From a virus (Duplodnaviria; Heunggongvirae; Uroviricota; Caudoviricetes): 64,000 nucleotides of DNA. The translations under genes were made by a program, and so were the position numbers. Each line of letters opens with the position of its first letter. The stretch's first letter is position 1. Below the pieces are notes generated by a model that saw only the letters and a program-made list of their open reading frames with translations, searched no databases and was not told the DNA's origin. The stretch lies in IMG/VR virus record IMGVR_UViG_3300028584_001242. The stretch is one strand, 5' to 3'. Positions 409-58,109 of the stretch are shown here, in pieces.

Positions 409-543
409 TTAATCTGCGTCTTGGTGACGGTTGCGACGACGATTGCGGAACTCGTTGTCTTTTTTGTTGAACTTCGCTTGTTCATTGTCTTTTTTCTTGC
501 CGCCGCGAAAACGTTCTACTGCGTCACCGAAAGAGCCTTGCAT
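409..543 (-). CDS. small basic peptide, MQGS family copy A (44 aa)
   Basis: MQGSFGDAVERFRGGKKKDNEQAKFNKKDNEFRNRRRNRHQDAD; GGAGA RBS; three further paralogs in the window. Confidence 0.85.
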   Translation of the reverse strand: MQGSFGDAVERFRGGKKKDNEQAKFNKKDNEFRNRRRNRHQDAD

Positions 544-591
544 GTTGTATCTCCTAACCTTGGGTTTGTGTTGTTTCGTTTTGATGGGATA

Positions 592-620
592 AGTATACCA
601 ATCCACATCAACAAAAACAA
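592..620 (-). promoter_or_regulatory. sigma70-like promoter of peptide copy A
   Basis: TTGTTT-17 nt-TATACT followed by the TATCCCATCAAAACGAAAC leader. Confidence 0.65.
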
Positions 621-633
621 CATTTTCTTTCAT

Positions 634-1020
634 TTATTTTGGGTTAAAAACCTTACCATAGTCGGCCATAAATTCAGCCGTATCAGGGTTGTCGGAATAA
701 GCAGGCAAAGGAACATCAGCCCCAAACTCATCCAGAAATTCTGGGTTGACATCGAAGACACCATAAACAGTCAACTCACCAGAACGCGATTCTGAACGGT
801 TGAGCAAGACTTTAATGTTCATTTCAGTTGCCAAATCCTGAACGATAACCTTTGCTTTCGACTTCGGCAATTGACCATAGACTTCAAACCAAGGCAAACT
901 GTCTTCCAGTTTCAAACGGGAACCAACAATACCAGAATAGACACCCAAGTTCCATTTTGACATCACACGATTAAAAGCTGCTTCCAGTTCAATAATGTTT
1001 TTAGTGTTGATTTCGGACAT
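634..1020 (-). CDS. hypothetical protein
   Basis: 128 aa ORF with GAGGTG RBS; no motif. Confidence 0.8.
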   Translation of the reverse strand: MSEINTKNIIELEAAFNRVMSKWNLGVYSGIVGSRLKLEDSLPWFEVYGQLPKSKAKVIVQDLATEMNIKVLLNRSESRSGELTVYGVFDVNPEFLDEFGADVPLPAYSDNPDTAEFMADYGKVFNPK

Positions 1021-1129
1021 AATAATTCACCTCATAGTTAAGCCTGATTATACAGGACATATGTCATAAATACAATATTTTGTTAATAAAAAAACCCGCA
1101 CTAGGCGGGTAAGTTGGGAAAGGTGTGAT

Positions 1130-1600
1130 TTAAGCAGAAAGCGGTTGAGCACTCCACTCATCATAAGGCTGCTGAACATAAGCGGCGTCCAGATGAGCCG
1201 ACAACTCTGCGACATCTTTAAACATGAACGATTGGCTTTCTTTGCCTTCGGTAGCCCGAATATAGAGTTCCCAGCGGTCTTCACCGTGACCATAGCCACC
1301 TTCGATGATGTCAGCGGTGCCACGCAAGATCAACTGGTGTTCATCACTGCCGGGATCTTGATAAGGAACCTGACGGGCATCCAGAGCGGCACGAATATCG
1401 TTGATGGTCAGTTTTTGAACGGGGTAGAGGTTGGCAACAAACTTAATTTCAAAAAGATGTTTAGGAGCATCTGGATAAAGGCTTTGGGCTTTCGAAAGTG
1501 CAGAAGAAGCATCTGCGGCCCATACCTCGCCCATATAGACATTGTGAAAACGAATCTGAAAAAGTTTAGTGTCAGTTTCAAAGTTATGTTCGTTGTTCAT
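1130..1600 (-). CDS. hypothetical protein
   Basis: Track ORF trimmed to MNNEHNF; own promoter and terminator. Confidence 0.75.
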   Translation of the reverse strand: MNNEHNFETDTKLFQIRFHNVYMGEVWAADASSALSKAQSLYPDAPKHLFEIKFVANLYPVQKLTINDIRAALDARQVPYQDPGSDEHQLILRGTADIIEGGYGHGEDRWELYIRATEGKESQSFMFKDVAELSAHLDAAYVQQPYDEWSAQPLSA

Positions 1601-1683
1601 GATGTTCGCCTTGGAAGAAGTGAGTAGGGTGATTATAACAAACCACCCATTCAAAAACAACATTTTTCGGTTAAATTAACGAA

Positions 1684-2136
1684 TTAACGGCGGTAGTCGG
1701 CCATGTTGTAGATTTTGGCGGTTGGGCGTTCTGGTGTGCAAGCTTCACCAAACAGAAGGCCAGCCAAAGCCGATTTGATGCCGTCGATTTGTTCTTGGGA
1801 GAACAGTTCTTTACCTTCTTCAAACAGGTCGGCCAGTGTTTCGCCATTTTCAAACAGAACCTTGTCTTCAATAGGTGCCGGAGCGGCAACGACAGGTTCT
1901 ACCACATCATCAGCCCGAAGGGTAGGGCACATGCTGTATTCACCACGCGGATAGAAGCATTCTTTGCCATCGTAGATGAAAATACCCTTAGTGGTAGGCT
2001 TAGTTTCACCTTTCATAAGGAACGTCACACGCTTGGGAGTGCGTTTGGTAATGGTTGCTGTAACCATATACGAGGAATCACCAATCGAAGGGGTAGCGTA
2101 GGTTTTGCCAGCTTCGAGTTTAAGGATAGTTTCCAT
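1684..2136 (-). CDS. phage/plasmid-type hypothetical protein
   Basis: Start METILKLEAGKTY; KRTPKRVT...GEYSMCPTLRA pattern resembles a small family I recall from phages and plasmids. Confidence 0.75.
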   Translation of the reverse strand: METILKLEAGKTYATPSIGDSSYMVTATITKRTPKRVTFLMKGETKPTTKGIFIYDGKECFYPRGEYSMCPTLRADDVVEPVVAAPAPIEDKVLFENGETLADLFEEGKELFSQEQIDGIKSALAGLLFGEACTPERPTAKIYNMADYRR

Positions 2137-2171
2137 GATGTTTCCCTTTCGGTTTCTGTTTTGATGGGATA

Positions 2172-2200
2172 ATTTTACCAAAAAAGAGATTTATAGGCAA
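2172..2200 (-). promoter_or_regulatory. representative sigma70-like promoter
   Basis: TTGCCT-17 nt-TAAAAT, followed by TATCCCATCAAAACAG. Confidence 0.7.
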
Positions 2201-2208
2201 CCATTATT

Positions 2209-2757
2209 TTAAATGTTTTTGAAATCAAGGCCGCACATCTGTTTTTCAAGCCAAGCAACCCGGCGTTTCAAGGCTTCGTTTTCCTCATGAAGCCGATCAG
2301 CGTCAACGAACTTAGCGGCATCTGCATAGCTGCGATCAAAGCTGTCAGTAGCCAGTTTCAAGACAGCCTCTTGCTCATCACCATATTCTGGGTAAGACAT
2401 GCCAGCGTAATACAAGGCAGGTTTCAAGAAATCCTTAATGGTTTCAAGTTGAACAGTCACCACTGCTTTACCATCACCGTTCGGAGTATAGTAGATCCAA
2501 AAATCCAGTGATTTGATAGAAGCCTTCTGATGATGAGTTTCACTCATGTTTTTATGAATGAACGATTTGAGTTGTTTATTGAAAAAATCAACAGCAATAT
2601 CAACCTCGTTCCAGCTAATGCCAGAAGCAACGTAATGATTGGTGACAAGTTTTTCAACTTGTTCTAGATCGATATCCACAACGCGGACATAGTGACCCTG
2701 ATAATTTTTGAAACGCTTACGGAACTGACTTGTGGTTTCTTTCTTTTGGTTAGTCAT
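2209..2757 (-). CDS. hypothetical protein with C-terminal coiled coil
   Basis: 182 aa ORF preceded by structured leader copy 1. Confidence 0.8.
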   Translation of the reverse strand: MTNQKKETTSQFRKRFKNYQGHYVRVVDIDLEQVEKLVTNHYVASGISWNEVDIAVDFFNKQLKSFIHKNMSETHHQKASIKSLDFWIYYTPNGDGKAVVTVQLETIKDFLKPALYYAGMSYPEYGDEQEAVLKLATDSFDRSYADAAKFVDADRLHEENEALKRRVAWLEKQMCGLDFKNI

Positions 2758-2786
2758 GAGTCATTCCATTCACTGAATTAGAGAGT

Positions 2787-2837
2787 GCAGATACAAGAGG
2801 AAAGGCTTACTTTAATGCTCGCCCCTTGTTGCTTCGA
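2787..2837 (-). promoter_or_regulatory. structured 5' leader motif, copy 1
   Basis: 51 nt nearly identical to 5672..5722, with a compensatory stem change. Confidence 0.6.
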
Positions 2838-2914
2838 TGGGATGATTATAACAAAAACGAGGTTTCAGAGCAACCATTTTTTTTTAAAACCAACTCACCC
2901 ATAGGACGATTCAA

Positions 2915-3559
2915 TTAAATTTTAGATTTTACAATTTTAACAAGATCGATAGGATAACAAGCAACAGGGAAATAAGAAATATAAACTCCAATATCAACAA
3001 TAGGTTTCCCCAGTTTAGAACAGACATCAGAAAACTCTTTAGAGAATGAAATTTTAAGATCGTTTAAGACAGTGCTGTCATAGTAAACACAATCAGAAGA
3101 TCCGTGTTTTGCTACATGTGTAATACCCAAATTTTTATATAAAATGTCAAGAATATTGCGAACATCATCATTATAATAATTAGATAATGCAATTATATTT
3201 ACAAATAAAGAAGAGTTCAGATTTTTTTCTGGACAATCAGAAAGTTCCTTTTCAATATCAAGATGAAGAGACGATATTTTTTTATTAATACTATTGTTGT
3301 ACAATTCAATAGTAGATTCTTCATGTTTAATAGATTCATCAATTTTATGAAGATTAATGATAGTCTCTTCAAGAACAGAAGCCATATGTTGTGGAAGTTT
3401 ATTTTTAATGAAAGACAGATAAGATGCTATTTCACCCAAATCTTGATGAGAACCATCAGAGTCAAAAGTATCAGAAGATGGAAAATGAGGTTTTTTCTGA
3501 CTATAAAGGTCGGCAATAGAATTTTCTATTTGAGAAATTTTTGTAAGAATGTCAGACAT
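2915..3559 (-). CDS. hypothetical protein (AT-rich gene)
   Basis: Track ORF trimmed to MSDILTK. Confidence 0.7.
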   Translation of the reverse strand: MSDILTKISQIENSIADLYSQKKPHFPSSDTFDSDGSHQDLGEIASYLSFIKNKLPQHMASVLEETIINLHKIDESIKHEESTIELYNNSINKKISSLHLDIEKELSDCPEKNLNSSLFVNIIALSNYYNDDVRNILDILYKNLGITHVAKHGSSDCVYYDSTVLNDLKISFSKEFSDVCSKLGKPIVDIGVYISYFPVACYPIDLVKIVKSKI

Positions 3560-3637
3560 AATATATAGCCTAAATTGATTTCGATGAAAGAAGTATAACA
3601 AACCCAAGTTCTCAGAGCAAACATTATTTCAAGAAAC

Positions 3638-3660
3638 AAAAAAGGGGCCGAAGCCCCTTT
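3638..3660 (-). terminator. intrinsic terminator with cUUCGg loop
   Basis: Minus strand GGGGC-TTCG-GCCCC plus T-tract. Confidence 0.85.
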
Positions 3661-3685
3661 TATAAAGTTGAAGAAAAATCTGAAA

Positions 3686-3961
3686 CTAAACCTTGATTGT
3701 TTTTGAATGACGTTTGTAAGGCCGCCATTTTGTGCCTTTGTTAAAACGCTCACGGCTGGCGGTTGCTTGGTCGGAGTGATTACCGCACTTGTCTTCCCAG
3801 CGAAGCATGTCAGCCGCTGCAACCCCGATATCCGCTTTGCATTGAACTTGAATTTCTTGATTGAGTATGCCGTTAGTAAAGCAACGAACGCCCCAAAGCT
3901 TTGGCTTGATGCGAGTTACTTTGATTTCATGCGACACATTGCCACCAATAATCACTTTCAT
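3686..3961 (-). CDS. hypothetical protein
   Basis: Start MKVIIGG; GAGG RBS; own promoter at 4006-4034. Confidence 0.75.
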   Translation of the reverse strand: MKVIIGGNVSHEIKVTRIKPKLWGVRCFTNGILNQEIQVQCKADIGVAAADMLRWEDKCGNHSDQATASRERFNKGTKWRPYKRHSKTIKV

Positions 3962-4005
3962 GTTAAGCCTCAAAATTAGAGTTGATAATTTGTTTTGATG
4001 GGTTA

Positions 4006-4073
4006 ATTATAACAAAAAAGAGTTTATTGGGCAAGCACTTATTTTAAAAACAAAAAAAAGGGGCCGAAGCCCT
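4006..4073 (-). promoter_or_regulatory. terminator-plus-promoter intergenic cassette
   Basis: GGGC-TTCG-GCCC hairpin and T-tract (4052-4073), then AT-rich UP-like DNA, then TTGCCC-17 nt-TATAAT. Confidence 0.75.
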
Positions 4074-4345
4074 CAATTAAATGTAAGATAGCATTGAGAC
4101 AAAGGAACTCGAAGCTTTTTCTTGGTGTCAACTTCTCGAATACTGGCAGTTATATCTTTGTCGGTAATATTAGCCAAGATAATAATATTATCATGCGAAT
4201 AAATTATACTGGTGCCAGCATAACAACGAATAGAGATAGTAGGACGTTGCAAATTTTCTTCCACGTCAGCTTTGGTTGGCTCACTACAACCAGCAAGCAC
4301 CATAATAGAAAGTGCAGTGATAATTGTTTTAGCAAATGTAGACAT
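4073..4345 (-). CDS. putative lipoprotein (paralog of 54000..54278)
   Basis: Signal peptide with LAGC lipobox; CYAGTSIIYSHDNIIILANITDKDI matches CYSGTSIPYQHDNVILVADITDTDI. Confidence 0.75.
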   Translation of the reverse strand: MSTFAKTIITALSIMVLAGCSEPTKADVEENLQRPTISIRCYAGTSIIYSHDNIIILANITDKDITASIREVDTKKKLRVPLSQCYLTFN

Positions 4346-4488
4346 AGTAAAGCTCCTATTGATTTGGTCTGGTTCATTTCGATAGACAGATTTTAGCAAA
4401 AAAAAGATTACAGAGCTACAAGTTTTTAACTGAAAATAAAAAATATCTGAAAAAGGGGCCGAAGCCCCAGTGTTCAAGGTGTTTTATT

Positions 4489-4887
4489 TTAGTGTGGCAG
4501 GCACATTTCGACATTGAAGCGATTGAACGCCTCCACCAAGATTTCACGGGCCTTGGTGGCGTCTTCTTCCGAGATAACAGAATAAGACTCGATGTATTTG
4601 ATAGCCGACACATCAACGCCTTCCGGCAAGTCAGTGTTAGCACCACTGGTGAAGGACGCATTGTAAGCAGATAGAGTAAGCTTAGGAGGTGCGTCGTAGC
4701 CCAACAATTCCAAACCGGGAGCCGTCCGCTCAGACGACAGGGCATAGAAGTTGGTGACACCATCATGGGAAAAGCTGAATTTTACAACAGCTTCACGGGT
4801 AGCACCACTGTTACGGTCAGCAACCACAATTTTTTTGGCAGCAATGGCTTTCAACAGAGCACGGTTAAATTTTTGAATGTGATTCAT
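4489..4887 (-). CDS. hypothetical protein
   Basis: 132 aa ORF with GAGG RBS. Confidence 0.75.
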   Translation of the reverse strand: MNHIQKFNRALLKAIAAKKIVVADRNSGATREAVVKFSFSHDGVTNFYALSSERTAPGLELLGYDAPPKLTLSAYNASFTSGANTDLPEGVDVSAIKYIESYSVISEEDATKAREILVEAFNRFNVEMCLPH

Positions 4888-4925
4888 TTATTTTTCCTCG
4901 GGTGTTTGTTGTTGAGGTTATTGTA

Positions 4926-5651
4926 TCAATAGAATGCCATCTTTACAAGCGATTTTAAATTTTCGCTCCATGTAGACAGGTCAATCAACGAATGAAGCTC
5001 ACCGAAACTCAGCTCAGGCATGGCTTCCTGTATTTTATGTTTATAGTAGCGATTGAAGAATTCCATATCCAGTTTTCGCAAGCTAGCCATAGTTGTCAAG
5101 TTGTTATTGGTGGCAGTAAATGAAACCTTGTTATTCTGGCTATCAGACAGTTTGAAGGAACCCGTTGCCACCCGAGAAATACGCTTGACATTATGGTCAT
5201 ATTTAAAACTAAACAACACATTGAAGTCAGCATGTTTATCAAACTTATTAAAAGAAACAACTTGGTTGGTTAGTTCCCTATGCTGGTTAATGCGACTAAC
5301 AAAAGCCTTGATATTGTCACAATCCAAATCATCGAAATGATTTGAATAAATATCGACAATCTCATGATTAAATCTAAAATAAAGTGAGTTGGGTGTATCA
5401 GCTTTATGAGCAGTGATCAACAGAATGGTTTCAGATTCATGGAATGAAGCACGATCTAAACCCAACGTGTGCGGGCATTCTTCACGAACAGCAACAATCC
5501 GTTGACCATTGGAATCTAGCGGGTAGCGACAAACGCCAAACTGATTGGAGCCGTACTCGAATTGATCGTTAGTGAATTTTTCAACGAAATAATCTTCAAG
5601 ACCAAAGGAAGGGTGTTTTTTTCTTTCTTCGGCGTAGGATTCTTCGTTCAT
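4926..5651 (-). CDS. hypothetical protein
   Basis: Start MNEESY; preceded by structured leader copy 2. Confidence 0.75.
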   Translation of the reverse strand: MNEESYAEERKKHPSFGLEDYFVEKFTNDQFEYGSNQFGVCRYPLDSNGQRIVAVREECPHTLGLDRASFHESETILLITAHKADTPNSLYFRFNHEIVDIYSNHFDDLDCDNIKAFVSRINQHRELTNQVVSFNKFDKHADFNVLFSFKYDHNVKRISRVATGSFKLSDSQNNKVSFTATNNNLTTMASLRKLDMEFFNRYYKHKIQEAMPELSFGELHSLIDLSTWSENLKSLVKMAFY

Positions 5652-5671
5652 GATAGTTGTCCAAGAAATGA

Positions 5672-5722
5672 GCAGAAACAAAAGGAAAGGCTTACTTGGA
5701 TGCTCGCCCTTTGCCGCTTCGA
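5672..5722 (-). promoter_or_regulatory. structured 5' leader motif, copy 2
   Basis: See copy 1 at 2787..2837. Confidence 0.6.
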
Positions 5723-5761
5723 AGACAGTATTTTATCAACAAACAGATAAACCTGCAACGG

Positions 5762-6232
5762 TTATTCGTAGTATTTGCCAAATTTAACAAAATGAAGCCA
5801 CTTTGCTTTATATTCGACAAATTTACTCACTAATACCCAAATAACAAAAAGGCTACCCACGATAAACATCAAAACACCCAGCAATTTCCAGATAGCCCCA
5901 TGAACATTATTATCAAGGTTCTCTTGACTGAGTTCCTTTTGCATAGGGACAGGTTTATTACCACCTACTTCGAATTCACGATAAAGTTTGTCTTGAATGG
6001 CAAGGCGAAAACGTTTGCCGGTCAAATCATCCAGAAAGAAACCCGTGGTATTGTAAAAGGTGTTTTGTTTCTGCTGGTAGGTTGTGCTACTGGTATCAAC
6101 AAGCGTGATGTTCCGTGTTGATTTTTCCTCATAATCAACACCAAAGCTATAAAGCTTGACGCCATACGAAATCATGACGACACCCACAAAAAAAAGAAAA
6201 ATGCAAAGCAGGTTCTTTCTGATGTACTGCAT
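5762..6232 (-). CDS. two-TM membrane protein (distant paralog of 55509..55931)
   Basis: N- and C-terminal hydrophobic helices around a periplasmic-type loop. Confidence 0.7.
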   Translation of the reverse strand: MQYIRKNLLCIFLFFVGVVMISYGVKLYSFGVDYEEKSTRNITLVDTSSTTYQQKQNTFYNTTGFFLDDLTGKRFRLAIQDKLYREFEVGGNKPVPMQKELSQENLDNNVHGAIWKLLGVLMFIVGSLFVIWVLVSKFVEYKAKWLHFVKFGKYYE

Positions 6233-6343
6233 AAAAGGTTACCACCTATCACAAATGAATGGTTTGATGGACTGATTATATCAAGGTTTTAAAACTGCAG
6301 CAACAAAAACCTCAATAATGAGGTCTTGATTTTAAAAGAGAGA

Positions 6344-6700
6344 TTATTCGCTAATGGTCATCAGCAATTGCTGATAAACGTTGTCATAAACGGCAATATC
6401 GCAGTCTGGTTTATTCAACAGGGATTCACGAAATTGTTTGAACGCCCAGTCGAGTATGTTTTTCTCGTTACGACCTATGACAAGCGAAAAGCCAGTAGGT
6501 GTGGATGTCATGCGATCAAGCAGAAGATTAAAGACAGCTTCTTCTTTGACACAATCATCAATGATTTGGATGTTTTTCTTTGTGAGTTGCCTGCAATATT
6601 GTTTTGAAGATGAATCAAGAGCTGCAGTAAACTTGGCATTAGAGCCGCCAAAACTTTTAATCATGGACACAAGCTGAAAAGGAGTGATTTTATTGTGCAT
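6344..6700 (-). CDS. hypothetical protein
   Basis: Start MHNKITPF after a GGAG RBS. Confidence 0.7.
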   Translation of the reverse strand: MHNKITPFQLVSMIKSFGGSNAKFTAALDSSSKQYCRQLTKKNIQIIDDCVKEEAVFNLLLDRMTSTPTGFSLVIGRNEKNILDWAFKQFRESLLNKPDCDIAVYDNVYQQLLMTISE

Positions 6701-6773
6701 GGAAACTCTCCAAATTTGTGAGGTCATTTTATCACAAAAGGAAAGCTTCCACAAGATTAAAACTTAAAAATGA

Positions 6774-7235: not shown

Positions 7236-7260
7236 TGATATGCTCTCCGTAAATTAGAAG

Positions 7261-7292: not shown

Positions 7293-7315
7293 TCACTGTT
7301 CACCAAAAATAAGTT

Positions 7316-8347
7316 TTAGTCGAAAATGAACTTTTTATGATTCTCATCTTTTGCAAGATAGTTTTCAATAATGGTATCAATCGGCAAAGGATTCTTGCGA
7401 TTATGCAGATTGTCGTGGGCGTGACGCTTCAACATCATCTCTTTGGCTTGCGTCAAGATCTCACGAAGGTTTTCAACACTTTCAGTATAATTCGACCATT
7501 CCAGTTTGGATTTTATCTTGTTGACTTCATGAGCCACAATCAACAGATTGGATACATTATAACCTTCGAAACGATTAATGCGGTCAATCGAGAAACCAAA
7601 TGGATTGTCTTCCTGTGTTTTAGTGGCCTTAACTAACGGCAAACCTGTCAATTGACAGTGAGTGACGCTAAACAGGTGCTTAGAGTTCTCAAAAGTGAGA
7701 TCGCTGGTAAAACCCTTGCTTTTGGAACGCTCTTTGCACATTTCAATTTTGCGAAGAATGGCCCTGTCTGAATAGAACGATGCTTTGCGGATAAAATCAG
7801 AAGCTTTAAAAACTGGAAGTGTCGGACGGGGTTGCAAAGGATCAGCCAACCTATTTTTAAGATTAATGATACGCTCTGGTGTTTGTAAAGACCGTTCAAC
7901 AAGCACATCCAGATCAACGACTTCTAGTGAAAGGCTTGTGGGTTTAGATTTAGCACGAAGTGTGTCGTGAATCAAACGAAGTTGAGCCTTGGTGTCATCA
8001 ACAGCCATAAAATCGGGTGATTCTTTCATAATTTTATGAAGTTCAAACCAAAAGTTAACGGTTTGTTGATGAACAATTAACACCTGATTAATAGAAACAA
8101 TATCGGCGGTATAAGGGTTAACGGGAATGAGAAACACAGTTCCCATATCATTAAATTTCAAGCCGGTCATTTCACAATAGGAATGTTCATTAATCTGAGT
8201 GGTTTTAAGACGTGCAATGACTTCTTTTTCAAGAATATCAAACGTGAGGCTTGGATAATAGCGTTTAACACGTCCAATCAATGAACGGACAGTGGATGTC
8301 AGTCGTGTCAAACCTTTTGAGTTTAAGTTTTCAGGAATGAGGATCAT
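7316..8347 (-). CDS. HNH-like (His-Me finger) endonuclease-domain protein
   Basis: C-terminal CQLTGLPL...FSIDRINRFEGYNVSNLLIVAHEVNKIK; degenerate second copy CEMTGLKF near the N-terminus. Confidence 0.6.
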   Translation of the reverse strand: MILIPENLNSKGLTRLTSTVRSLIGRVKRYYPSLTFDILEKEVIARLKTTQINEHSYCEMTGLKFNDMGTVFLIPVNPYTADIVSINQVLIVHQQTVNFWFELHKIMKESPDFMAVDDTKAQLRLIHDTLRAKSKPTSLSLEVVDLDVLVERSLQTPERIINLKNRLADPLQPRPTLPVFKASDFIRKASFYSDRAILRKIEMCKERSKSKGFTSDLTFENSKHLFSVTHCQLTGLPLVKATKTQEDNPFGFSIDRINRFEGYNVSNLLIVAHEVNKIKSKLEWSNYTESVENLREILTQAKEMMLKRHAHDNLHNRKNPLPIDTIIENYLAKDENHKKFIFD

Positions 8348-16046: not shown

Positions 16047-16173
16047 TGTGTCGCTTCCTGTGTTTTGTTTCGATGGGGTAATTATAATGAAAAACAGATT
16101 TATGAGCAAGTGTTATTTTAAAAGAATGAAAAAAGCCTCCGAAGAGGCTCTTTATCTGAATAATGTTGCGTGG

Positions 16174-22004: not shown

Positions 22005-22169
22005 GTCATTAATCTCATTGGTTTCGATGGGATAATTATATCAAAAACGAGTTTTTGTGTCAATGAATCTTTATTTTAAAAACAGTCATCACGTATTAAT
22101 AAATAAAACCATCGTTGACTTTTTTATTATTGTGCTAGAATGAATACACACAATTATAAAAATAACAAT

Positions 22170-25434: not shown

Positions 25435-25508
25435 GATGTCTGACCTATTCGTTTTGATGAGGCATTATAACATGAATATCACCAAACAAAAACCATTTTT
25501 TTTGAAAA

Positions 25509-33304: not shown

Positions 33305-33330
33305 AAAAAACCCCGAATTAACGGGGCTTT
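33305..33330 (-). terminator. intrinsic terminator closing the peptide-tRNA-Leu(UAA) transcript
   Basis: Minus strand CCCCG-TTAATT-CGGGG plus T-tract. Confidence 0.75.
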
Positions 33331-33380
33331 TCTTTATACTAATATTAAGTTTAAATTCTCAATTTTATTTGAATTTATAA

Positions 33381-33515
33381 CTGCATCGGTAGTTCACCTC
33401 TGGCACTTACTTTAATAGGAACTAAGGGGTAGTCGGCATTCAACATTTATTATACTAGATTCAATTATAGATTAAATTAAGTGTTAATGCTGCATTATTG
33501 GCTCACCTCTGGCAC
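33381..33515 (-). repeat. twin 26-nt motif in the tRNA trailer
   Basis: CTGCAT-N7-TCACCTCTGGCAC (+ strand) at 33381-33406 and 33490-33515. Confidence 0.85.
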
Positions 33516-33550
33516 ACTCATTAAGTAAAAGTGGTTAATGTTATTTAATC

Positions 33551-33635
33551 TGGTGCCCGGTGCCGGACTCGAACCGGCACTCCTTACGGAAAGGGATTTT
33601 AAGTCCCTCGTGTCTACCAATTTCACCAACCGGGC
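33551..33635 (-). tRNA. tRNA-Leu (anticodon UAA)
   Basis: GCCCGGT/ACCGGGC acceptor, D-loop TGGTAGAC, loop CT-TAA-AA, long variable arm, GGTTCGAGTCC T-arm, encoded CCA. Confidence 0.95.
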
Positions 33636-33641: not shown

Positions 33642-33773
33642 TTATTCTGCGTCTGGGTGACGCTGACGACGCTGGTCACGCATTTGACGGCTTGCTTTAT
33701 TATCGCCACGTTTGGAGTTGTCTTTCTGCTTACCTGCAAACTTTTCCATCATGTCGCGGTGAGAACCTTGCAT
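33642..33773 (-). CDS. small basic peptide, MQGS family copy D (43 aa)
   Basis: MQGSHRDMMEKFAGKQKDNSKRGDNKASRQMRDQRRQRHPDAE; AAGGA RBS; stop 6 nt before the tRNA. Confidence 0.85.
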   Translation of the reverse strand: MQGSHRDMMEKFAGKQKDNSKRGDNKASRQMRDQRRQRHPDAE

Positions 33774-33810
33774 GTTTTGTATCCTTATGTTGTTTCGTTC
33801 TGATGGGTTT

Positions 33811-33839
33811 ATTATAGTGAAAAGTGGGGTAGCTGTAAA
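33811..33839 (-). promoter_or_regulatory. promoter of the peptide D plus tRNA-Leu(UAA) unit
   Basis: TTTACA-17 nt-TATAAT, then CCCATCAGAACGAAAC. Confidence 0.7.
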
Positions 33840-35581: not shown

Positions 35582-35748
35582 TGGTAGCTGTTGATGGGAT
35601 CGAACCACCAAGTTAGGACTATTTCATAAGCCTCGGAGTACGTGCATGCTCGTCTGACTTACTATTTCATCTTCACTTCGCCTCCACATCCACGGTCTTT
35701 GATGTTTGCACGTATAACACCGCCAACCGATCCAGTTTAGCAACAGCC
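35582..35748 (-). ncRNA. 167-nt tRNA-like, tmRNA-related RNA (mini-tmRNA-like)
   Basis: GGCTGTT/AACAGCT acceptor plus ACCA; GGTGG-TTCGATC-CCATC T-arm; 13-nt unpaired D-loop analogue with CTGGAT; perfect TACGTGCA/TGCACGTA helix; 3' arm resembles E. coli ssrA as I recall it. Confidence 0.75.
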
Positions 35749-51445: not shown

Positions 51446-51456
51446 GGAATAATTCC

Positions 51457-51558
51457 TTATTTCGACTTAACGATAACAGACACATCAGAAGGTTTTTCAG
51501 CAACCTGTTTGGTGTCATCGTTGTTGTCTTTTTTGCAGACTTTGCATTTATCACACAT
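51457..51558 (-). CDS. 33-aa Cys peptide
   Basis: MCDKCKVCKKDNNDDTKQVAEKPSDVSVIVKSK; GGAG RBS. Confidence 0.45.
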   Translation of the reverse strand: MCDKCKVCKKDNNDDTKQVAEKPSDVSVIVKSK

Positions 51559-51848
51559 GATGAAGGCTCCAACCTCATTAAAGTAACCAAATTATAGCAA
51601 GAAAACCTCAAAAATGAAAGCTTTTATTGTAACTTAATAAAAATAAATAAATATTTTAGTAAGTTGATTTTTAAATTAATTGTGTTTTTTTTATATATTA
51701 AATAAACAAATTTATTAAAAACAATACAAAACTATAATCGTTATTATTAATATAAAATATTATATAAATATCATATTATCAACAACAACTCAATTTGATT
51801 TTATATAAAATATGGTAAATTTAATAGTAATACAATAATAATATTAAT

Positions 51849-52478
51849 ATGAAAAAAACAATACTAATGTTAACAGGTTCTCTATTAGCCAGCACTGTAT
51901 TAACAGCAAATGCTTCATATACCGCTATATATGGTGAGAAACAAATCAATGGCGATAACATTACGTTTGTAAAAAAAGGTAAATGGATAAAAGCATCCCC
52001 AGCAATATCAGAATGGGTGAATGTTGGTTCTGCTACGGGTTGTTCAAACTGGACACCAGATCCAAGCACAGTAGCTATTGGCACTACATTTAATCAAACC
52101 GCGAATAACTGCACACAAGAACAAACAAGAACAGTTCAAAACAGAGAACAAAATGATTATACCCTTATATACAGGAACATTGGTGAATCTATAAATGAAA
52201 ATAAAACACTAACTAATCAGACCAATACAAGAACAGCAAATGGTACTAAGATAGTAAATGAATGTGGTACAGGTGATATAAACCAATATCGTTGGGTTAA
52301 TGGAACACCATCAATGAGCATGATGTATATTATATGGAATGGTGCAAAAGTTTTCCCTGATATTGGAAATATTAATTTAACAGAATATACATATAATGGA
52401 TATAAATATACCAAAGGTGGTCAGGTATCTAACTTAGGTTACTATACATTCCACACTGTATGTAGAGTAAAATTATAA
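51849..52478 (+). CDS. secreted adhesin-like protein (tandem paralog of 52511..53122)
   Basis: Signal peptide; WVNVGS-TGCS-WTPDPS...C-Q-QTRTVQ module; C-terminal YKYTKG...VCR domain. Confidence 0.8.
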   Translation: MKKTILMLTGSLLASTVLTANASYTAIYGEKQINGDNITFVKKGKWIKASPAISEWVNVGSATGCSNWTPDPSTVAIGTTFNQTANNCTQEQTRTVQNREQNDYTLIYRNIGESINENKTLTNQTNTRTANGTKIVNECGTGDINQYRWVNGTPSMSMMYIIWNGAKVFPDIGNINLTEYTYNGYKYTKGGQVSNLGYYTFHTVCRVKL

Positions 52479-52510
52479 GTATTTAAAATAATAAAAATGA
52501 GTAAAAATAT

Positions 52511-53122
52511 ATGAAAAAAATAAGTTTAATAATATTGCCATTTGCTTTACTAGGTTTAATGGCTAATGCAAACGCAAGTTACCAAGTTATATACGGTGAT
52601 AAGCAAATAAATGGTGATAATATAAAGTTTGTAAGTAAATGGTTAGTTGCTGATCCATTGGTAAGTGAATGGGTTAATGTAGGATCTCCAACAGGTTGTT
52701 CTGCATGGACGCCAGATCCAAGTACAAAAAATATTGGAGTGACATTTGATCAATCAGCTACTGGGTGTACACAGGTGCAAACCAGAACAGTGCAGGAAAG
52801 AGAACAAAACAATGTCAGCCATGAATACAGACCTATTGGCCCAGTAAAAAATGAAAATAGAACATTGAGCAATCAAACACTAACTAGATCAGCAGTTGGT
52901 ACTAAATCACCAGAAGAATGTGATATTCCAAACTCAACTTGGGTTGCAGGTTCACCATCTTATGCATTGTTAAATATAACATCAAATGGCGTATTAGTTT
53001 ATAGTGGTGGTGATTTCGCATCTACTCAAAAAGTAGTTGGAGCTTACAAATACACCAAAGGTGTTTTAACCGCAAACTATGGCTCATATACAATAAGTAA
53101 AGTTTGTCGAACAGCATTGTAA
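52511..53122 (+). CDS. secreted adhesin-like protein (tandem paralog of 51849..52478)
   Basis: See neighbour. Confidence 0.8.
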   Translation: MKKISLIILPFALLGLMANANASYQVIYGDKQINGDNIKFVSKWLVADPLVSEWVNVGSPTGCSAWTPDPSTKNIGVTFDQSATGCTQVQTRTVQEREQNNVSHEYRPIGPVKNENRTLSNQTLTRSAVGTKSPEECDIPNSTWVAGSPSYALLNITSNGVLVYSGGDFASTQKVVGAYKYTKGVLTANYGSYTISKVCRTAL

Positions 53123-53176
53123 TATTAAAAATAAGAAACAAAAAAGCCCTATCGCTAGGGCTTTTTCTTTGGTAGA

Positions 53177-53308
53177 TTACTCTGCGTCTTGGTGACGGTT
53201 CCGGCGTTTGTCACGGAAGTTACGATCTTTGCGATTTTCTTTGGACTTCGAAGTATCTTGTTGCTTGCCGCGAAAACGTTCTGTAGCTTCACCGAAAGAA
53301 CCTTGCAT
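53177..53308 (-). CDS. small basic peptide, MQGS family copy B (43 aa)
   Basis: MQGSFGEATERFRGKQQDTSKSKENRKDRNFRDKRRNRHQDAE; GGAGA RBS; TTTACA-17-TATACT promoter at 53356-53384; absent from the ORF track. Confidence 0.85.
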   Translation of the reverse strand: MQGSFGEATERFRGKQQDTSKSKENRKDRNFRDKRRNRHQDAE

Positions 53309-53418
53309 GGTGTATCTCCAACTGTTTGATTGTGATGTTTCGTTTTGATGGGATAAGTATATCTAAATCGAACCATCATGTAAAGCAGCTTTTTATCATT
53401 TAATAGTTTATTTATAAT

Positions 53419-53444
53419 AAAAAAGAGGCCGAAGCCTCTTTTTT
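53419..53444 (-). terminator. cUUCGg terminator
   Basis: AGAGGC-CGAA-GCCTCT flanked by A- and T-tracts. Confidence 0.85.
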
Positions 53445-53461
53445 GTAAGGTCAAACTATTG

Positions 53462-53887
53462 TTACTTGAATGATTTTGCTTCTTCGATAAAATCACGATA
53501 GAATTTAGCCCAATCATCAATGTCTACTTCAAGGCGTGCAAGCACTTCATTGGATACGCCCATCAGTTGAAGATTTTCAAATTCTTTTTTCAGCAAATCT
53601 TTTTGAAGGTGGTAGGCTTTTGTAAAAGCATTAAGTTCATCATCGGTGACAACAACATCAACGCCAGTGCGGCCTTCGAGGTTACGGCCATATTTACGGA
53701 AGATTGACTTCAGGCTTTGCTCAAAACCATCATTTAGTGCTGAAAGATTATGAAAATCGACCATACTTTTTTTATCTCGTTTTGGGTTCATGACATAGCA
53801 AACCAAAGAGATATGCATAGACTTACAATGATCTCGAACAACCAGTTCAAGAAATTGCATTTTTTTGTGAAAATCAAAACCTTTCAT
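53462..53887 (-). CDS. hypothetical protein
   Basis: 141 aa; GAGGA RBS. Confidence 0.75.
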   Translation of the reverse strand: MKGFDFHKKMQFLELVVRDHCKSMHISLVCYVMNPKRDKKSMVDFHNLSALNDGFEQSLKSIFRKYGRNLEGRTGVDVVVTDDELNAFTKAYHLQKDLLKKEFENLQLMGVSNEVLARLEVDIDDWAKFYRDFIEEAKSFK

Positions 53888-53999
53888 TTTTAAATCCTCG
53901 GAATGTTTGATGAGTTGATTATATCATCAAAAATGACATTTCACAACTATTTTAAGCCAAACGATGATTCTTATAGACAAAAAAGGGCTGAAGCCTTAA

Positions 54000-54278
54000 T
54001 CAATTATCTTTAAAGTAACATTGTGAAACAGGAACCCGCCTACTAATGCCAGTATCGGTTTCTTGAATTCTTGCAGAAATGTCAGTATCAGTAATGTCAG
54101 CGACCAAAATAACATTATCATGTTGATAAGGTATTGAAGTTCCTGAATAACAAACAACAGATATAGTCTTTTTGCCTGAAATATTGCTTTGTGTGTTAGT
54201 GTTACTTTTTTCTTCTGCATTACAACCTGCCGACACAGAAAGAGCGAGTGCAAGTGCGATAATAAATGTCTTTTTCAT
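54000..54278 (-). CDS. putative lipoprotein (paralog of 4073..4345)
   Basis: SAGC lipobox; see paralog. Confidence 0.75.
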   Translation of the reverse strand: MKKTFIIALALALSVSAGCNAEEKSNTNTQSNISGKKTISVVCYSGTSIPYQHDNVILVADITDTDISARIQETDTGISRRVPVSQCYFKDN

Positions 54279-54375
54279 AAAGGCTCCAATTAATATAAGT
54301 TACTAAGTATATCAGAAAAGATTTTATGATACAAACAAAAAGAGGCCGAAGCCTCTTTATTTTGCAGTGTCTTGA

Positions 54376-54894
54376 TTACGCAACCACTACGGCTGAGGTT
54401 GGAAGTCCACGTAGGTCAATCGGGTCAATGTCAGACAATTTAATGTCAACAATGTGAACACTTGGATACATGTCTCGAATCATGTCAGAAAAGCTACGTG
54501 GCATAACTTCTGCTTCGAGTTCAGTCACCGATTCAGCCAGACGGCGAGCTTTGGTGCGAAGCTCAATCAGTTCGTTGATGAGTTTCAGTTCATGGGCCGA
54601 CGATGGCTTGGCTGGGCGGTTCAGTTCCAAGTTGCTTTCGTGACGCAGGATGTCGAGGTCTTTCTGAGCCGGGAACAGTTCAGCATGGACAGCAATACCA
54701 GCTTGAGTCAACGAAACAACGTCGCCTTCGCGGGAAACCAGACCTTTGCCTTTCAGATTCAGGAGAACCGCATTCACCTGAGAGAGCTTTACAGCTTCTG
54801 GGCCGGTAGGGATGGTTTGAACATTTACCGACGAAGTGCCGAGAGCAACGATGTTCACGATTACTGCGGTTTCGAGAGCGGTAACTTTGGTCAT
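54376..54894 (-). CDS. hypothetical protein with winged-helix-like N-terminus and coiled coil
   Basis: VNAVLLNLKGKGLVSREGDVVSLTQAG resembles a winged helix. Confidence 0.6.
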   Translation of the reverse strand: MTKVTALETAVIVNIVALGTSSVNVQTIPTGPEAVKLSQVNAVLLNLKGKGLVSREGDVVSLTQAGIAVHAELFPAQKDLDILRHESNLELNRPAKPSSAHELKLINELIELRTKARRLAESVTELEAEVMPRSFSDMIRDMYPSVHIVDIKLSDIDPIDLRGLPTSAVVVA

Positions 54895-54994
54895 GGTGTA
54901 TCTCCGATGTTTGATTAGGTATCTCGTTTTGATGTGTCTATAATATCAAAAACCACATTTATTGGCAAGCATTCTTTCATCAAAAAACATATTT

Positions 54995-55201
54995 TTAGCC
55001 AATAAATTTTTTAATAGCCTTTTCGTATTCTTTACTTGATTTATATACATCATAAGCGAAAAAAATTAACACCAAAGAGACGATACCCCAAAAAACCATC
55101 TGGTCTGAAAATTCACTTCGGACAGGTTCTTGGATGAAATTAAAGGCACAAACCCCTATCATCAGCAAACACAACAAAACTTGAACAATAAGACTTTTCA
55201 T
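54995..55201 (-). CDS. small two-TM membrane protein
   Basis: ATGA overlap with the upstream gene. Confidence 0.65.
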   Translation of the reverse strand: MKSLIVQVLLCLLMIGVCAFNFIQEPVRSEFSDQMVFWGIVSLVLIFFAYDVYKSSKEYEKAIKKFIG

Positions 55202-55464
55202 GGTTCCCACCGATTAACCAAATCATCAGCAACAGGTTCTTTATTTTGTGGTGTCCAGCAAATGAAAATCATTGCTGAAATAATTGCAATCGTCATCGAA
55301 AACAACATCAAGATCATGCTGACATGGAACCAGTAAGGCAGGTAGTCAGGTGAAATGTGGTAGGCCATATGAGCAGTGTAGCGGTTGCTTTGGTACAAAC
55401 AGATCGTCAACAAAATAAAAATAATAACGAATAAACCAGAGTTGAATCTAGTAATATGTTTCAT
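55198..55464 (-). CDS. small two-TM membrane protein
   Basis: Hydrophobic helices. Confidence 0.65.
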   Translation of the reverse strand: MKHITRFNSGLFVIIFILLTICLYQSNRYTAHMAYHISPDYLPYWFHVSMILMLFSMTIAIISAMIFICWTPQNKEPVADDLVNRWEP

Positions 55465-55508
55465 TGATATCCCCTTTTAATTGATTAGAATTATGTCAAA
55501 AAACACAT

Positions 55509-55931
55509 TTATTGACAAGCTTTATTTTCATCGGATTTAATAAAATAACGAATATACAAAGCCATGCAAACTGAAAACCAAATGAGAAAGGTTATCATAA
55601 ACAAGGACGCACCAACACCGCCAACGAAAGGCATGATATTGCCGACTTCACTCGCAGATGCCTTGATATATATGACCATAGGCTGGCTATGCCCCATCAG
55701 GAAAGATTCAAGATCCAAGGAATCAACAGGTCGCTTAAATTGATGACCTTCATAATTGAAGTCACCTACATATGACTGATCGTTACGGATTTCTACTGCC
55801 GTCAACTCAACTGCAATCACCATTTTGTCAGTGACTCTGGAAATTTGCAAAATAGCAAAGCTTGCAAGTACCCAAATTAAGCACATAATAAGGCATACGC
55901 CCAATACTTTGTTTTTGTTTAAATTTTTCAT
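55509..55931 (-). CDS. two-TM membrane protein (distant paralog of 5762..6232)
   Basis: Same topology and similar loop. Confidence 0.65.
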   Translation of the reverse strand: MKNLNKNKVLGVCLIMCLIWVLASFAILQISRVTDKMVIAVELTAVEIRNDQSYVGDFNYEGHQFKRPVDSLDLESFLMGHSQPMVIYIKASASEVGNIMPFVGGVGASLFMITFLIWFSVCMALYIRYFIKSDENKACQ

Positions 55932-56104
55932 GACATATCTCTTAATTTAAATGAATAAACGTTCTAAAGTGATGAGCCATTGTATCAAAAGTAATATTTT
56001 TAAGCAACCTGTTTTAACTGAAATTTCAATTTACAAAAAAATTGTAAAATGGCTTGAAAAAATATCAATATTTGATATATTATGTGGAACAATGGAGAAA
56101 TGCT

Positions 56105-56515
56105 ATGAGTTATGTAAGTGACAACTTGATGGATGGTGAAGTAATTGAATATGAAGCAAGTTTAAGTAACTGGGGTTTCTTCTGGCAAATTTTTTTTGGT
56201 GTTCTACTTATTCCTGTTCTTGTGGGAATTGTGATTTTAGTGATTGTCTACATTCAGAAAAAGTGTACGGAATTGGCTGTAACCAACAAACGATTGATTG
56301 CTAAAAAAGGATTCATTCAGAGAGATACCGTTGAAATAAACTTGAAAAAAGTTGAAAGTATACAGGTTAATCAAGGTTTAATGGGTAGAATGTTTAACTT
56401 TGGTACAATTATTGTTTCAGGGACTGGTCATGGTAATGCACCGATTAAGTACATTGCAGATCCCCTTGAATTTAGAAGACGCCTTTCAATGGCCCAAGAC
56501 AAGATGGACGAATAA
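56105..56515 (+). CDS. bacterial PH-domain (bPH_2) membrane protein
   Basis: MSYV..NL..GE; TELAVTNKRLIAKKGFI; KVESIQVNQG--GRMFNFGTI-VSGTG. Confidence 0.85.
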   Translation: MSYVSDNLMDGEVIEYEASLSNWGFFWQIFFGVLLIPVLVGIVILVIVYIQKKCTELAVTNKRLIAKKGFIQRDTVEINLKKVESIQVNQGLMGRMFNFGTIIVSGTGHGNAPIKYIADPLEFRRRLSMAQDKMDE

Positions 56516-56556
56516 ACACAAGAAGACTGTTCAAACAGTCTTTTTTTTCGGCTGTG

Positions 56557-57039
56557 TTATTTGTCAATACGATAATAGAATGTGTAATAACCCGAACCAC
56601 TTGCCCCCATATGGCAACCATACTTACGCCCATCAATAGGATCATCAGGAATAGTGGAAACAGTGTCAAATTTTAGAGCATCATAATTAGCAATGATTTG
56701 TTTACACACATCGAGTGAAAGTAAGGCTGAATCTTGTATTTTAACTAATGACTCATCCGCATCAATTACAAAGTCAACACTTTCATAATTAGGAACTTGT
56801 GTTAGATAGGCAGCATCTTTAAGTTTACTCACATTTTCAACACTCATGCCAGACATGGAAACACCTTCATTTTTTGCAAAGAGAGCCGCCGTAGCAATAG
56901 TGTTTGCAGTGTTTAATAAGTAAGCAGTTTTTGTATAAATAGAATTATTATTATAGGCATAAAAACCATAAGCAATTGTTGCAACAGATAAAGCAGCCAT
57001 AAGAGCAATAGAAATGATCGAGATAATAAGTGAAAACAT
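56557..57039 (-). CDS. pilin-like protein (MFSLII.IISIAL type)
   Basis: Hydrophobic N-terminus MFSLIISIISIALMAALSVATIAYG; L-AAYLTQVP; C-terminal Cys pair. Confidence 0.55.
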   Translation of the reverse strand: MFSLIISIISIALMAALSVATIAYGFYAYNNNSIYTKTAYLLNTANTIATAALFAKNEGVSMSGMSVENVSKLKDAAYLTQVPNYESVDFVIDADESLVKIQDSALLSLDVCKQIIANYDALKFDTVSTIPDDPIDGRKYGCHMGASGSGYYTFYYRIDK

Positions 57040-57232
57040 GTATTCTCCGTTATTAATATTAACTTCCAAGTTAGTCTAACACCAAACTCTTAATTAATAA
57101 TTTACCTCGGAGTACAACGATGTCAATTATTTTTTATATAAATTAATATATCAAAGTGCCACTATTTACATATAAAAATAAATATATAAACAAAAAAGAC
57201 AGCCTTAGCTGTCTTCTTTTTGTACATGACGA

Positions 57233-57475
57233 TTAGTAGTTTTGATCACTATCTCCGATGGAGTAGACGACAACTTGCTCTTTTGTGTCCTTATCGGTCA
57301 CAGTGATGGCTTCTGGTAAATTGATGTCAGCAAATTCACCGAGAGCATAGAAACCTTCTTGTCGAACACACAACTTTGAACCGGCTGGCAGTTCTTTCAA
57401 TGCGGCAATCATATCTTCAACATCGATCATTGCACTAACAGAACCAGCAACGTTTGTTGTAATAAGAGTTTTCAT
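57233..57475 (-). CDS. small hypothetical protein
   Basis: GGAGG RBS. Confidence 0.75.
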   Translation of the reverse strand: MKTLITTNVAGSVSAMIDVEDMIAALKELPAGSKLCVRQEGFYALGEFADINLPEAITVTDKDTKEQVVVYSIGDSDQNY

Positions 57476-57568
57476 GAAACCTCCTTGATTTAGATCCTTA
57501 TAATAACAAAAAACAGAATAATAGGCAACAAAAAAAGGAGCCGAATCTCCTTTTTCTTTAAAGTCTGG

Positions 57569-57877
57569 TTATTTCCAGAGCTTCAACATACTACCAGCCA
57601 AATCGGCACTGATTGTTTCCATCTCGTAATACTTACCCGAATGTTTATGGATAAGTTCTTTGAGCCGAAGAACTTCTTTATCAGCATACTGTTTGGTGGT
57701 GAACAGCGTGGCATGTAGGCTTTTTTCGTTTTCTTGAAAACCTGTGTCAGCACTGACCATTGGCTTACTGAAAGTGGGCAGAGATCCATCACCTTGTGCG
57801 TCAGCTTTGAAACCAGACCAGAACATGTAGCCCAGAGCATTGTTTGGATCGAGGTCTTTAACAGCAATCAAATACAT
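57569..57877 (-). CDS. hypothetical protein (paralog of 19858..20142)
   Basis: Starts 11 nt after the peptide C stop; probably co-transcribed. Confidence 0.75.
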   Translation of the reverse strand: MYLIAVKDLDPNNALGYMFWSGFKADAQGDGSLPTFSKPMVSADTGFQENEKSLHATLFTTKQYADKEVLRLKELIHKHSGKYYEMETISADLAGSMLKLWK

Positions 57878-57888
57878 GATGGATTTCC

Positions 57889-58020
57889 TTATTCAGCGTC
57901 TTGGTGACGGTTGCGGCGAGCATCACGGAACTGACGCTCTTTGCGATTTTCTTTGGTCTTGGAAGAATCTTGTTGCTTACCACGAAAACGTTCTGTTGCT
58001 TCACCGAAAGAACCTTGCAT
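57889..58020 (-). CDS. small basic peptide, MQGS family copy C (43 aa)
   Basis: MQGSFGEATERFRGKQQDSSKTKENRKERQFRDARRNRHQDAE; GGAGA RBS; TTTACA-17-TATACT promoter at 58066-58094; absent from the ORF track. Confidence 0.85.
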   Translation of the reverse strand: MQGSFGEATERFRGKQQDSSKTKENRKERQFRDARRNRHQDAE

Positions 58021-58109
58021 TTGTGTATCTCCGACTGGTTTATGGTGTTTCGTTTTGATGAGACAAGTATAGCTAAAATCAGATTTTATGTAAAGATATT
58101 TTTGTTCGA

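Follow-up and report, generated by a model that had tools for sequence, protein, structure and literature searches.

The 64,000-nucleotide (nt) stretch of IMG/VR virus record IMGVR_UViG_3300028584_001242 (Caudoviricetes), hereafter the window, carries four paralogous genes of 43–44 codons, all on the minus strand, that encode copies of one mini-protein. The mini-gene codes for a real protein under purifying selection, and the family to which it belongs has a fixed length and is confined to a group of uncultivated giant phage-like elements. The most likely reading of its role, to which we assign a probability of roughly 0.35, is that of an abundant early protein that binds RNA or the translation apparatus. 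All coordinates are those of the whole window.

Four mini-genes in the window

Four ORFs sharing MQGS, E10, F12, G14 and an Arg-rich C-terminus had been proposed in an initial annotation of this DNA. Translation and alignment of the minus strand bore out all four (Table 1), and the shared residues all fall within the 17 invariant columns of the four-way alignment (M1, Q2, G3, S4, E10, F12, G14, K15, D18, N25, R32, R35, R36, R38, H39, D41 and A42). A hidden Markov model (HMM) of the family, comprising 48 distinct members, was run on the six-frame translation of the window, taking every open stretch of 15 residues or more. The four copies scored E 4e-25 to 1e-20, and the next best stretch scored E ~1. 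Because everything else lay at E ~1 or worse, the window contains exactly four copies and no fifth, the number originally given.

The promoter TTTACA-17 nt-TATA(C/A)T, also described earlier for three of the copies, was called upstream of copies 2, 3 and 4. The terminators of copies 1 and 3 have GNRA loops. Copy 4 heads a three-gene operon that ends in a terminator at 57192-57219; its two further ORFs had no family matches, and the layout of this operon is conserved in the related loci L007-L019. The mini-gene had been called unannotated, which is only partly so: the JGI, ENA and Logan gene calls carry the mini-protein as a hypothetical protein.

Table 1. Coordinates of the mini-genes, their cassettes and one similar phage protein. 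aa, amino acids.
Feature	Position	Strand	Basis or remark
Copy 1, 44-aa mini-protein, F-type, GGKKKDNEQAKF subtype	409..543	-	Translation; HMM E 4.4e-25
Copy 1 promoter (TTGTTT 615-620, 17-nt spacer, extended -10 TGGTATACT 592-600) and start box CATCAAAACGAAAC 573-586	573..620	-	Read from sequence; orthologues L032 and L035 have the same architecture
Copy 1 intrinsic terminator, GAGA loop, T-run	368..397	-	
Copy 2, 43-aa mini-protein, H-type, MQGSHRDMMEKF	33642..33773	-	HMM E 1.1e-20
Copy 2 promoter TTTACA-17-TATAAT 33811-33839 and start box 33792-33805	33792..33839	-	
tRNA-Leu(UAA) in the transcription unit of copy 2	33551..33635	-	ARAGORN; Rfam 59.4 bits
Terminator closing the copy 2/tRNA-Leu unit	33305..33332	-	
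Copy 3, 43-aa mini-protein, F-type, GKQQD subtype	53177..53308	-	HMM E 3.5e-24
Copy 3 promoter TTTACA-17-TATACT 53356-53384 and start box 53337-53350	53337..53384	-	
Copy 3 intrinsic terminator, GCGA loop	53140..53167	-	
Copy 4, 43-aa mini-protein	57889..58020	-	88% identical to copy 3, dS 0.42
Copy 4 promoter TTTACA-17-TATACT 58066-58094 and start box 58047-58060	58047..58094	-	
Remainder of copy 4 operon: 102-aa ORF 57569-57877, 80-aa ORF 57233-57475	57192..57877	-	
Salicola phage SCTP-2 gp251 (L062/L067/L068)	MF360958.1 244290-245345		

The mini-protein is under purifying selection

The ratio of nonsynonymous to synonymous substitution rates (dN/dS) between the copies, which the initial annotation had named as a check, was 0.18-0.38 in all pairs, with dS ranging from 0.42 (copies 3 and 4) to >2 (2.3). 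The genes are therefore real and under selection, and each has its own promoter. Among 36 non-redundant family loci, the mean pairwise difference at the first, second and third codon positions was 0.31, 0.24 and 0.53, respectively, so that third positions are the most variable. Some public gene calls extend the protein at its N-terminus; these extended calls read the conserved leader in differing frames, and the leader is therefore non-coding and the methionine of MQGS is the true start.

Searched exhaustively with HMMER, 1.84 billion representative proteins yielded 33 clusters at 50% identity. The core is 41-46 residues long in all 33 clusters, and all of them keep the pattern M-Q-G-S-aromatic...E-K/R-F...R-x-x-R-R/K/Q-N-R-H. 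The mini-protein has a mass of 5.2 kDa and an isoelectric point (pI) of 10.4; Leu, Ile, Cys, Trp and Tyr are absent from the window copies. The peptide had been described as basic, and in terms of its pI it is, but only moderately so, as the net charge is just +4/+5 with 48% of residues charged. AlphaFold2, run on 31 sequences, predicted helices at residues 5-14 and 19-36 with a mean predicted local distance difference test score (pLDDT) of 75, rising to 85-89 over residues 21-40.

A basic helical peptide produced in bulk from early-type promoters could also be directed at DNA. It would then coat or compact the DNA of the host or of the element, or block host transcription, through its Arg-rich helix. 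No result obtained here separates DNA binding from RNA binding. We nevertheless regard this DNA-binding or nucleoid-directed function as unlikely, because the net charge of +4/+5, the 18% of acidic residues and the conserved acidic C-terminus are unlike those of protamine-type condensers, and because the conserved tRNA linkage described below would have no obvious meaning.

Distribution and paralogue clades

A word-indexed search returned 39 clusters from JGI, ENA, Logan and a few NCBI metagenome records, all of them unnamed or labelled "hypothetical protein". Megablast and tblastn found no match to the mini-gene in INPHARED phages or PLSDB plasmids, and there was no relative in 185,579 GTDB species genomes. 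The copies reside on metagenome contigs of 0.5-1.9 Mb, with several copies in 100-275 kb of a contig. A contig of 1.86 Mb has at least 7 copies, one of 678 kb has at least 5, and a 290-kb IMG/VR record (G004) has 6.

In a tree of the family, in which 44 columns limit the resolution, an H-type clade (MQGSH/Y-x-D-M/T-x-E-K-F), to which at least five elements contribute, separated from the F-type remainder. Copy 2 is 91% identical to a gene in another element (L044_909) and only 53-58% identical to its own window paralogues; the nearest relative of copy 1, 84% identical, also belongs to another element. Since identity across elements exceeds identity within the window, the paralogues are old and have been maintained in parallel. 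This fits selection for dosage and/or specificity, as had been suggested for the four diverged copies. Copies 3 and 4 are a lineage-specific, recent duplication.

Promoter cassette and signals of high expression

About 24 of the 36 non-redundant loci share one near-consensus promoter arrangement, in which an A-tract precedes TTTACA (or a close variant), a 17-nt spacer and TATA(C/A)T; five bases further on comes the sequence CATCAAAACGAAAC. An A/C-rich leader follows, with GGAG positioned 7-8 nt before the ATG. In three of the four window copies the leader and start region folded worse than dinucleotide shuffles (z +1.1 to +1.5). The codons point in the same direction as the promoter. AGA and AGG account for none of the 265 family Arg codons, compared to 20% in 78 long window ORFs, whereas CGT/CGC make up 90% of the Arg codons and GGT/GGC make up 99% of the Gly codons. 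Codon usage thus looks tuned to abundant host tRNAs, and because AGA and AGG are absent, the mini-genes are independent of the tRNA-Arg(UCU) that often follows them. Copy number, at 6-7 or more per related element, also speaks for high expression. We infer from these signals that the mini-gene would be transcribed early and very strongly by the sigma-70 RNA polymerase of the host.

In a first search of sequencing runs, no listed holder of the sequence was recorded as RNA. With a 901-nt stretch around copy 4, one contig each came from a fish-associated metatranscriptome and from a run guessed to be RNA. These contigs of 166 and 229 nt, with one mismatch, span only the mini-gene and the first ~45-55 nt beyond it. 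They hint weakly at transcription of copy 4 and cannot show its level, ends or strand.

A DNA-type run labelled with a named organism contained window positions 57400-58300, near-identical, within a contig of 9.6 kb covered ~21x. A culture or a single-organism sample may therefore contain the element or one nearly identical to it.

The initial annotation had described a leader shared by all four copies. The 14-mer CATCA[A/G]AACGAAAC does precede all four, and it occurs without mismatch only at these four positions in the window (Table 1), but it is not private to the mini-gene. With up to two mismatches it had 11 matches in the window versus 2 expected. Variants in the same register were found in other strong window promoters, namely TATAAT-TATCC-CATCGAAAC at 22035, CATCGAAACAAAAC at 16062, CATCAAAACGAATA at 25446 and CATCAAAACGAGAT at 54921. 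A scan of IMG/VR with TATAMT-N3-YY-CATCRAAACGAAAC retrieved one family locus and four unrelated viral contigs (L057, L059, L060 and L061), where ~0.2 chance matches would be expected by a rough estimate; in the four unrelated contigs the box precedes unrelated genes with their own ribosome-binding sites. Thus, CATCAAAACGAAAC is a general promoter start box and is not specific to the mini-gene, and these matches suggest that -10/N5/CATC(A/G)AAACGAAAC is a widely used initial-transcribed sequence. A gene-specific leader RNA was rejected, given the box in other window promoters and in unrelated viral contigs and the unstructured leader.

The cassettes resemble the promoter-early stem-loop (PeSL) cassettes that flank small non-essential genes in the hyperplastic regions of T4-type phages (Arbiol et al. 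2010, PMC2839356). In both cases a small ORFan is enclosed by a strong sigma-70-like promoter on one side and a stem-loop terminator on the other, and many such units lie on one strand, duplicated and shuffled. Bracketing of this type was found for copies 1 and 3 individually and for the whole units to which copies 2 and 4 belong, with 36 related loci on record. In contrast to PeSLs, one ORF is here the repeated cargo, conserved over deep divergence, and a tRNA often takes the place of the terminal stem-loop; the mini-gene cassettes are also unrelated in sequence to T4-type PeSLs.

Linkage to tRNA genes

Between the stop codon of copy 2 and tRNA-Leu(UAA) there is a gap of just 6 nt, and it contains neither a promoter nor a terminator. 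The co-transcription of one copy with a tRNA, as noted initially, is therefore upheld as a single unit, and it recurs across the family. At 11 of the 36 non-redundant loci, a tRNA-Arg(UCU), tRNA-Leu(UAA) or tRNA-like gene begins 7-33 nt past the stop codon; about 17 loci are monocistronic and end in their own terminator, and the remainder run into another ORF. Linkage was found in 8 of 10 H-type rows versus 3 of 28 F-type rows, these rows not being phylogenetically independent. In record G004, four of the six copies are trailed within 12-35 nt by one of its 37 tRNA hits, and the chance for a single copy there to precede a tRNA so closely is ~0.005 by our own arithmetic. A relative with ~45% identity (P0058) is followed after 10 nt by tRNA-Arg(UCU)-tRNA-Leu(UAA)(-tRNA-Met) on two unrelated contigs. 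The window also contains a tRNA-Leu(CAA) that has its own promoter and no mini-gene. The association between mini-gene and tRNA is strong and is obligatory in neither direction.

At many loci the stop codon lies 6-13 nt before the 5' end of the tRNA, where ribosomes and RNase P would compete. The mini-gene might on this basis be a purely cis-acting translated leader, in which translation itself matters (e.g., by stabilizing or insulating the tRNA transcript) and the peptide has no function. We consider this very improbable: purifying selection on the amino acids is strong while synonymous sites are near saturation, roughly half of the loci stand alone with their own terminator, and length and termini are fixed over 33 clusters.

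Some of the tRNA-like genes behind mini-genes have an abnormal anticodon loop. Directly behind mini-genes at L023 (1411-1487, minus strand, in G004) and L039 lie tRNA-shaped genes that are followed by normal tRNAs. For both tRNA-shaped genes ARAGORN called 2-nt 'anticodons' ('???'), i.e., shortened anticodon loops.

Spare and decoy tRNAs made together with the mini-protein would be consistent with a counter-defence factor that shields the tRNAs of the element or inhibits a host nuclease acting on tRNA or other RNA. Co-transcription with tRNA-Arg(UCU), tRNA-Leu(UAA) and the abnormal-loop genes at L023 and L039 speaks for such a factor, and parallel diverged paralogues would fit several targets. 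This explanation is rather unlikely all the same, as the high conservation (dN/dS ~0.2-0.4) is not arms-race-like, no defence gene was identified as a target, and there was no match in Pfam or PHROGs (PADLOC was not searched).

Two further observations concern the surroundings of these tRNAs. The ~220 nt between tRNA-Leu(UAA) and the terminator of its unit (33333-33550, minus strand) contain no convincing ORF. They hold two exact copies of GTGCCAGAGGTGA, at 33394-33406 and 33503-33515 (minus strand), each followed by ...ATGCAG. The mini-gene/tRNA transcript may here include another small RNA, for which the fold z-score is only -1.4. The segment at 35582-35748 (minus strand), after tRNA-Leu(CAA), had earlier been flagged as resembling transfer-messenger RNA (tmRNA); it is present and ends in CCA before a terminator, and at Rfam gathering thresholds there was no tmRNA match in the window.

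Comparison with known families and systems

Neither the four window copies nor, subsequently, 46 members of the family matched Pfam, NCBIfam or PHROGs. A profile search of the PDB gave nothing below E 0.1; its best match, at E 0.12, was a compositional, sub-threshold one to the basic tail of eS24. Foldseek of the AlphaFold2 model against the PDB gave no match, a feature search of the ESM-Atlas was uninformative (best score 0.78), and searching the literature for text containing the peptide motifs turned up no paper.

The initial annotation had drawn analogies to ArfA, the SmpB and ArfB tails and Sra, and had considered a ribosome-rescue role. These analogies found no sequence support in Pfam, NCBIfam, PHROGs or the PDB. 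No ArfA, ArfB or SmpB family appeared at E up to 10 in the hmmscan of the four copies or of the 46 members, and sequence profiles did not place the mini-protein with Sra, bS21 or any other small ribosomal protein. A by-eye resemblance to bS21 (F..A..RF) was rejected for want of profile support, PF01165 being absent from G001, G002 and G004. A rescue factor or partner of a tmRNA-like RNA, similar to ArfA or the SmpB tail, is the least probable of the explanations weighed here and hardly credible. All that speaks for it is the neighbourhood, with tRNA-like RNAs and the tmRNA-like segment 35582-35748 in the same region. Even there the nearest copy is 1.8 kb away in a separate unit, the mini-protein shows no similarity to the ArfA, ArfB, SmpB or Sra models, and multiple copies at very high dosage would not be expected of a rescue factor.

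The small ribosome-associated proteins (Sra, bS21, bL34, bS22/bL37 and ArfA) are nevertheless comparable in size class (25-70 residues), in being basic and in high copy demand, and unlike the mini-protein in the absence of any HMM match (46 members, E up to 10) and in net charge, that of the mini-protein being much lower. A functional precedent is gp014 of phiKZ, an abundant immediate-early protein of a jumbo phage that binds the 50S subunit at the 5S rRNA (Gerovac et al. 2024, PMC10914614). It shows that a very early, abundant phage protein outside known families can target the host ribosome. However, gp014 is a multi-domain protein of >260 residues encoded by a single-copy gene and has no sequence similarity to the mini-protein, for which ribosome binding is only proposed.

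The tpr gene of E. coli is a small protamine-like ORF within the tyrT tRNA transcript (PMC3141248). It offers a loose analogy, i.e., a tiny basic ORF on a strong tRNA-operon transcript. Whereas tpr sits downstream of tRNAs, the mini-gene is promoter-proximal and the tRNA comes after it. Arginine-rich-motif RNA-binding peptides, such as the N proteins of lambda and P22 and HIV Rev, are similar in composition only, each being a small and otherwise low-complexity protein with a short Arg-rich helix (R-x-x-R-R-N-R-H in the mini-protein). The motif is C-terminal in the mini-protein and N-terminal in lambda N, where it binds a boxB hairpin in a nut site. The comparison with lambda N showed a predicted Arg-rich C-terminal helix and no profile match, and no boxB/nut-like target was identified, although nut-like elements were not searched for systematically.

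Residues 1-19 of the mini-protein are similar to the N-terminal sequence (MGGSFSDTTERF...) of gp251 from Salicola phage SCTP-2, with E 2e-4 in that genome and an hhalign probability of 73-91% confined to these residues. gp251 is a Pol-beta-like nucleotidyltransferase (phrog_24943; structural neighbours in the Atlas), and a single homologue of it keeps MGGAYTDQ-ERF. Membership of the mini-protein in this family was rejected, as the full palm domain is absent and residues 1-19 alone align; no full-length relative of gp251 was present in the window or in G001-G004. On this alignment we treat the likeness as an unexplained motif similarity.

Proposed mode of action

The preferred reading, an abundant early mini-protein that binds RNA or the translation apparatus, would operate as follows. 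Each copy is a compact cassette in which an A-tract, the -35 and -10 elements and the start box are followed by the unstructured A/C-rich leader, with its GGAG ribosome-binding site, and then by the ORF. For Arg and Gly this ORF is restricted to codons characteristic of highly expressed genes, and the cassette is closed by a terminator, a tRNA or further genes. By analogy with the PeSLs of T4-type phages, the cassette has probably spread by recombination between promoter/terminator modules. Its product might work in trans and in stoichiometric quantity. The target would be abundant, would contain RNA and would belong to the host or to the element, candidates being tRNA or tRNA-like RNAs, the ribosome and RNA-processing enzymes. 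As a guess, the invariant Arg-rich C-terminal helix (R-x-x-R-R-N-R-H) would form the binding surface and the invariant N-terminal helix (MQGS-aromatic-x-D/E-x-x-E-K/R-F) would confer specificity. Action in trans is proposed because of the ~17 monocistronic loci with their own terminator. The link to RNA or translation is proposed because of the tRNA adjacency at 11 of 36 loci, in four of the six G004 copies and in the 45%-identical relative.

A more specific form of this proposal is possible but doubtful. The mini-protein may bind host ribosomes, or the tRNAs or tRNA mimics of the element, and thereby redirect translation to the element, with H-type paralogues (in tRNA operons) and F-type paralogues (stand-alone) having distinct RNA partners. 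The translation-directed role put forward in the initial annotation thus keeps its basis in recurrent tRNA co-transcription, although it is circumstantial and has lost the rescue-factor analogies.

Several findings weigh against binding of RNA or the translation apparatus. The mini-protein has no homology to any RNA-, ribosome- or tRNA-binding family and no structural match. Its net charge of only +4/+5 is well below that of small ribosomal proteins. About 12 of the 14 tRNA clusters of G004 lack a mini-gene and most F-type copies lack a tRNA, so that the linkage could reflect shared strong promoters and not function. Finally, the contigs from RNA libraries cannot prove transcription, and both expression and timing are deduced from sequence.

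The genomes of giant phages and phage-like elements are rich in tRNAs and tRNA mimics whose use is poorly understood. A tiny, strongly conserved, multi-copy family with every sequence signal of very high expression and repeatedly wired into tRNA operons could reveal a new way for such elements to handle host translation or RNA, and at 43 residues it is a cheap, synthesizable target. If the mini-protein is a plain nucleic-acid coat, it is an ordinary new ORFan family. The family also illustrates that genes among the most strongly selected in such genomes can be missed because of length cut-offs.

Genomic context

The window is phage-like and consists mostly of small minus-strand genes with sigma-70-type promoters and terminators. 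It encodes a thymidine kinase that shares 45-48% identity with the enzymes of gamma-proteobacterial jumbo phages (Salicola SCTP-2, Serratia and Klebsiella phages). Several ORFs match PHROGs, and there is a weak T4-baseplate match; the immediate neighbours of the mini-genes have no family match, and the Gp23 and Terminase_6N models had no match in G001, G002 and G004.

This setting bears on whether the mini-protein could be an internal peptide packaged in the virion, the conserved N-terminus serving as a targeting sequence or propeptide that is cleaved after the invariant Glu10 (A-x-E in F-type copies). In T4 and phiKZ-type phages, prohead proteases cleave behind x-x-E motifs, and in the mini-protein the N-terminal 12 residues are invariant, with Glu10 nearly so. 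The H-type copies, however, have M-M-E and not A-x-E. The promoters are of the host type, look early and lie among small early-type genes; neither a capsid nor a protease context was found, and the tRNA linkage would be left unexplained. Packaging of this kind is accordingly improbable.

Related IMG/VR records are labelled provirus. IMG/VR cuts such 'proviruses' of 150-290 kb from metagenome contigs of 0.8-1.9 Mb, and close relatives of the window lie on the contigs Ga0308158_10000001 (1.86 Mb), Ga0370506_000001 (1.92 Mb), Ga0247725_1000001 (1.54 Mb) and Ga0370511_0000001 (0.83 Mb). These contigs may be giant elements, prophages in small genomes or assembly chimeras.

Within the window, the C-terminal half of a 343-aa ORF (7316-8347, minus strand) matches HNH-endonuclease PHROGs, and has weaker matches to PHROGs annotated 'decoy of host sigma70' and 'Srd anti-sigma factor'.

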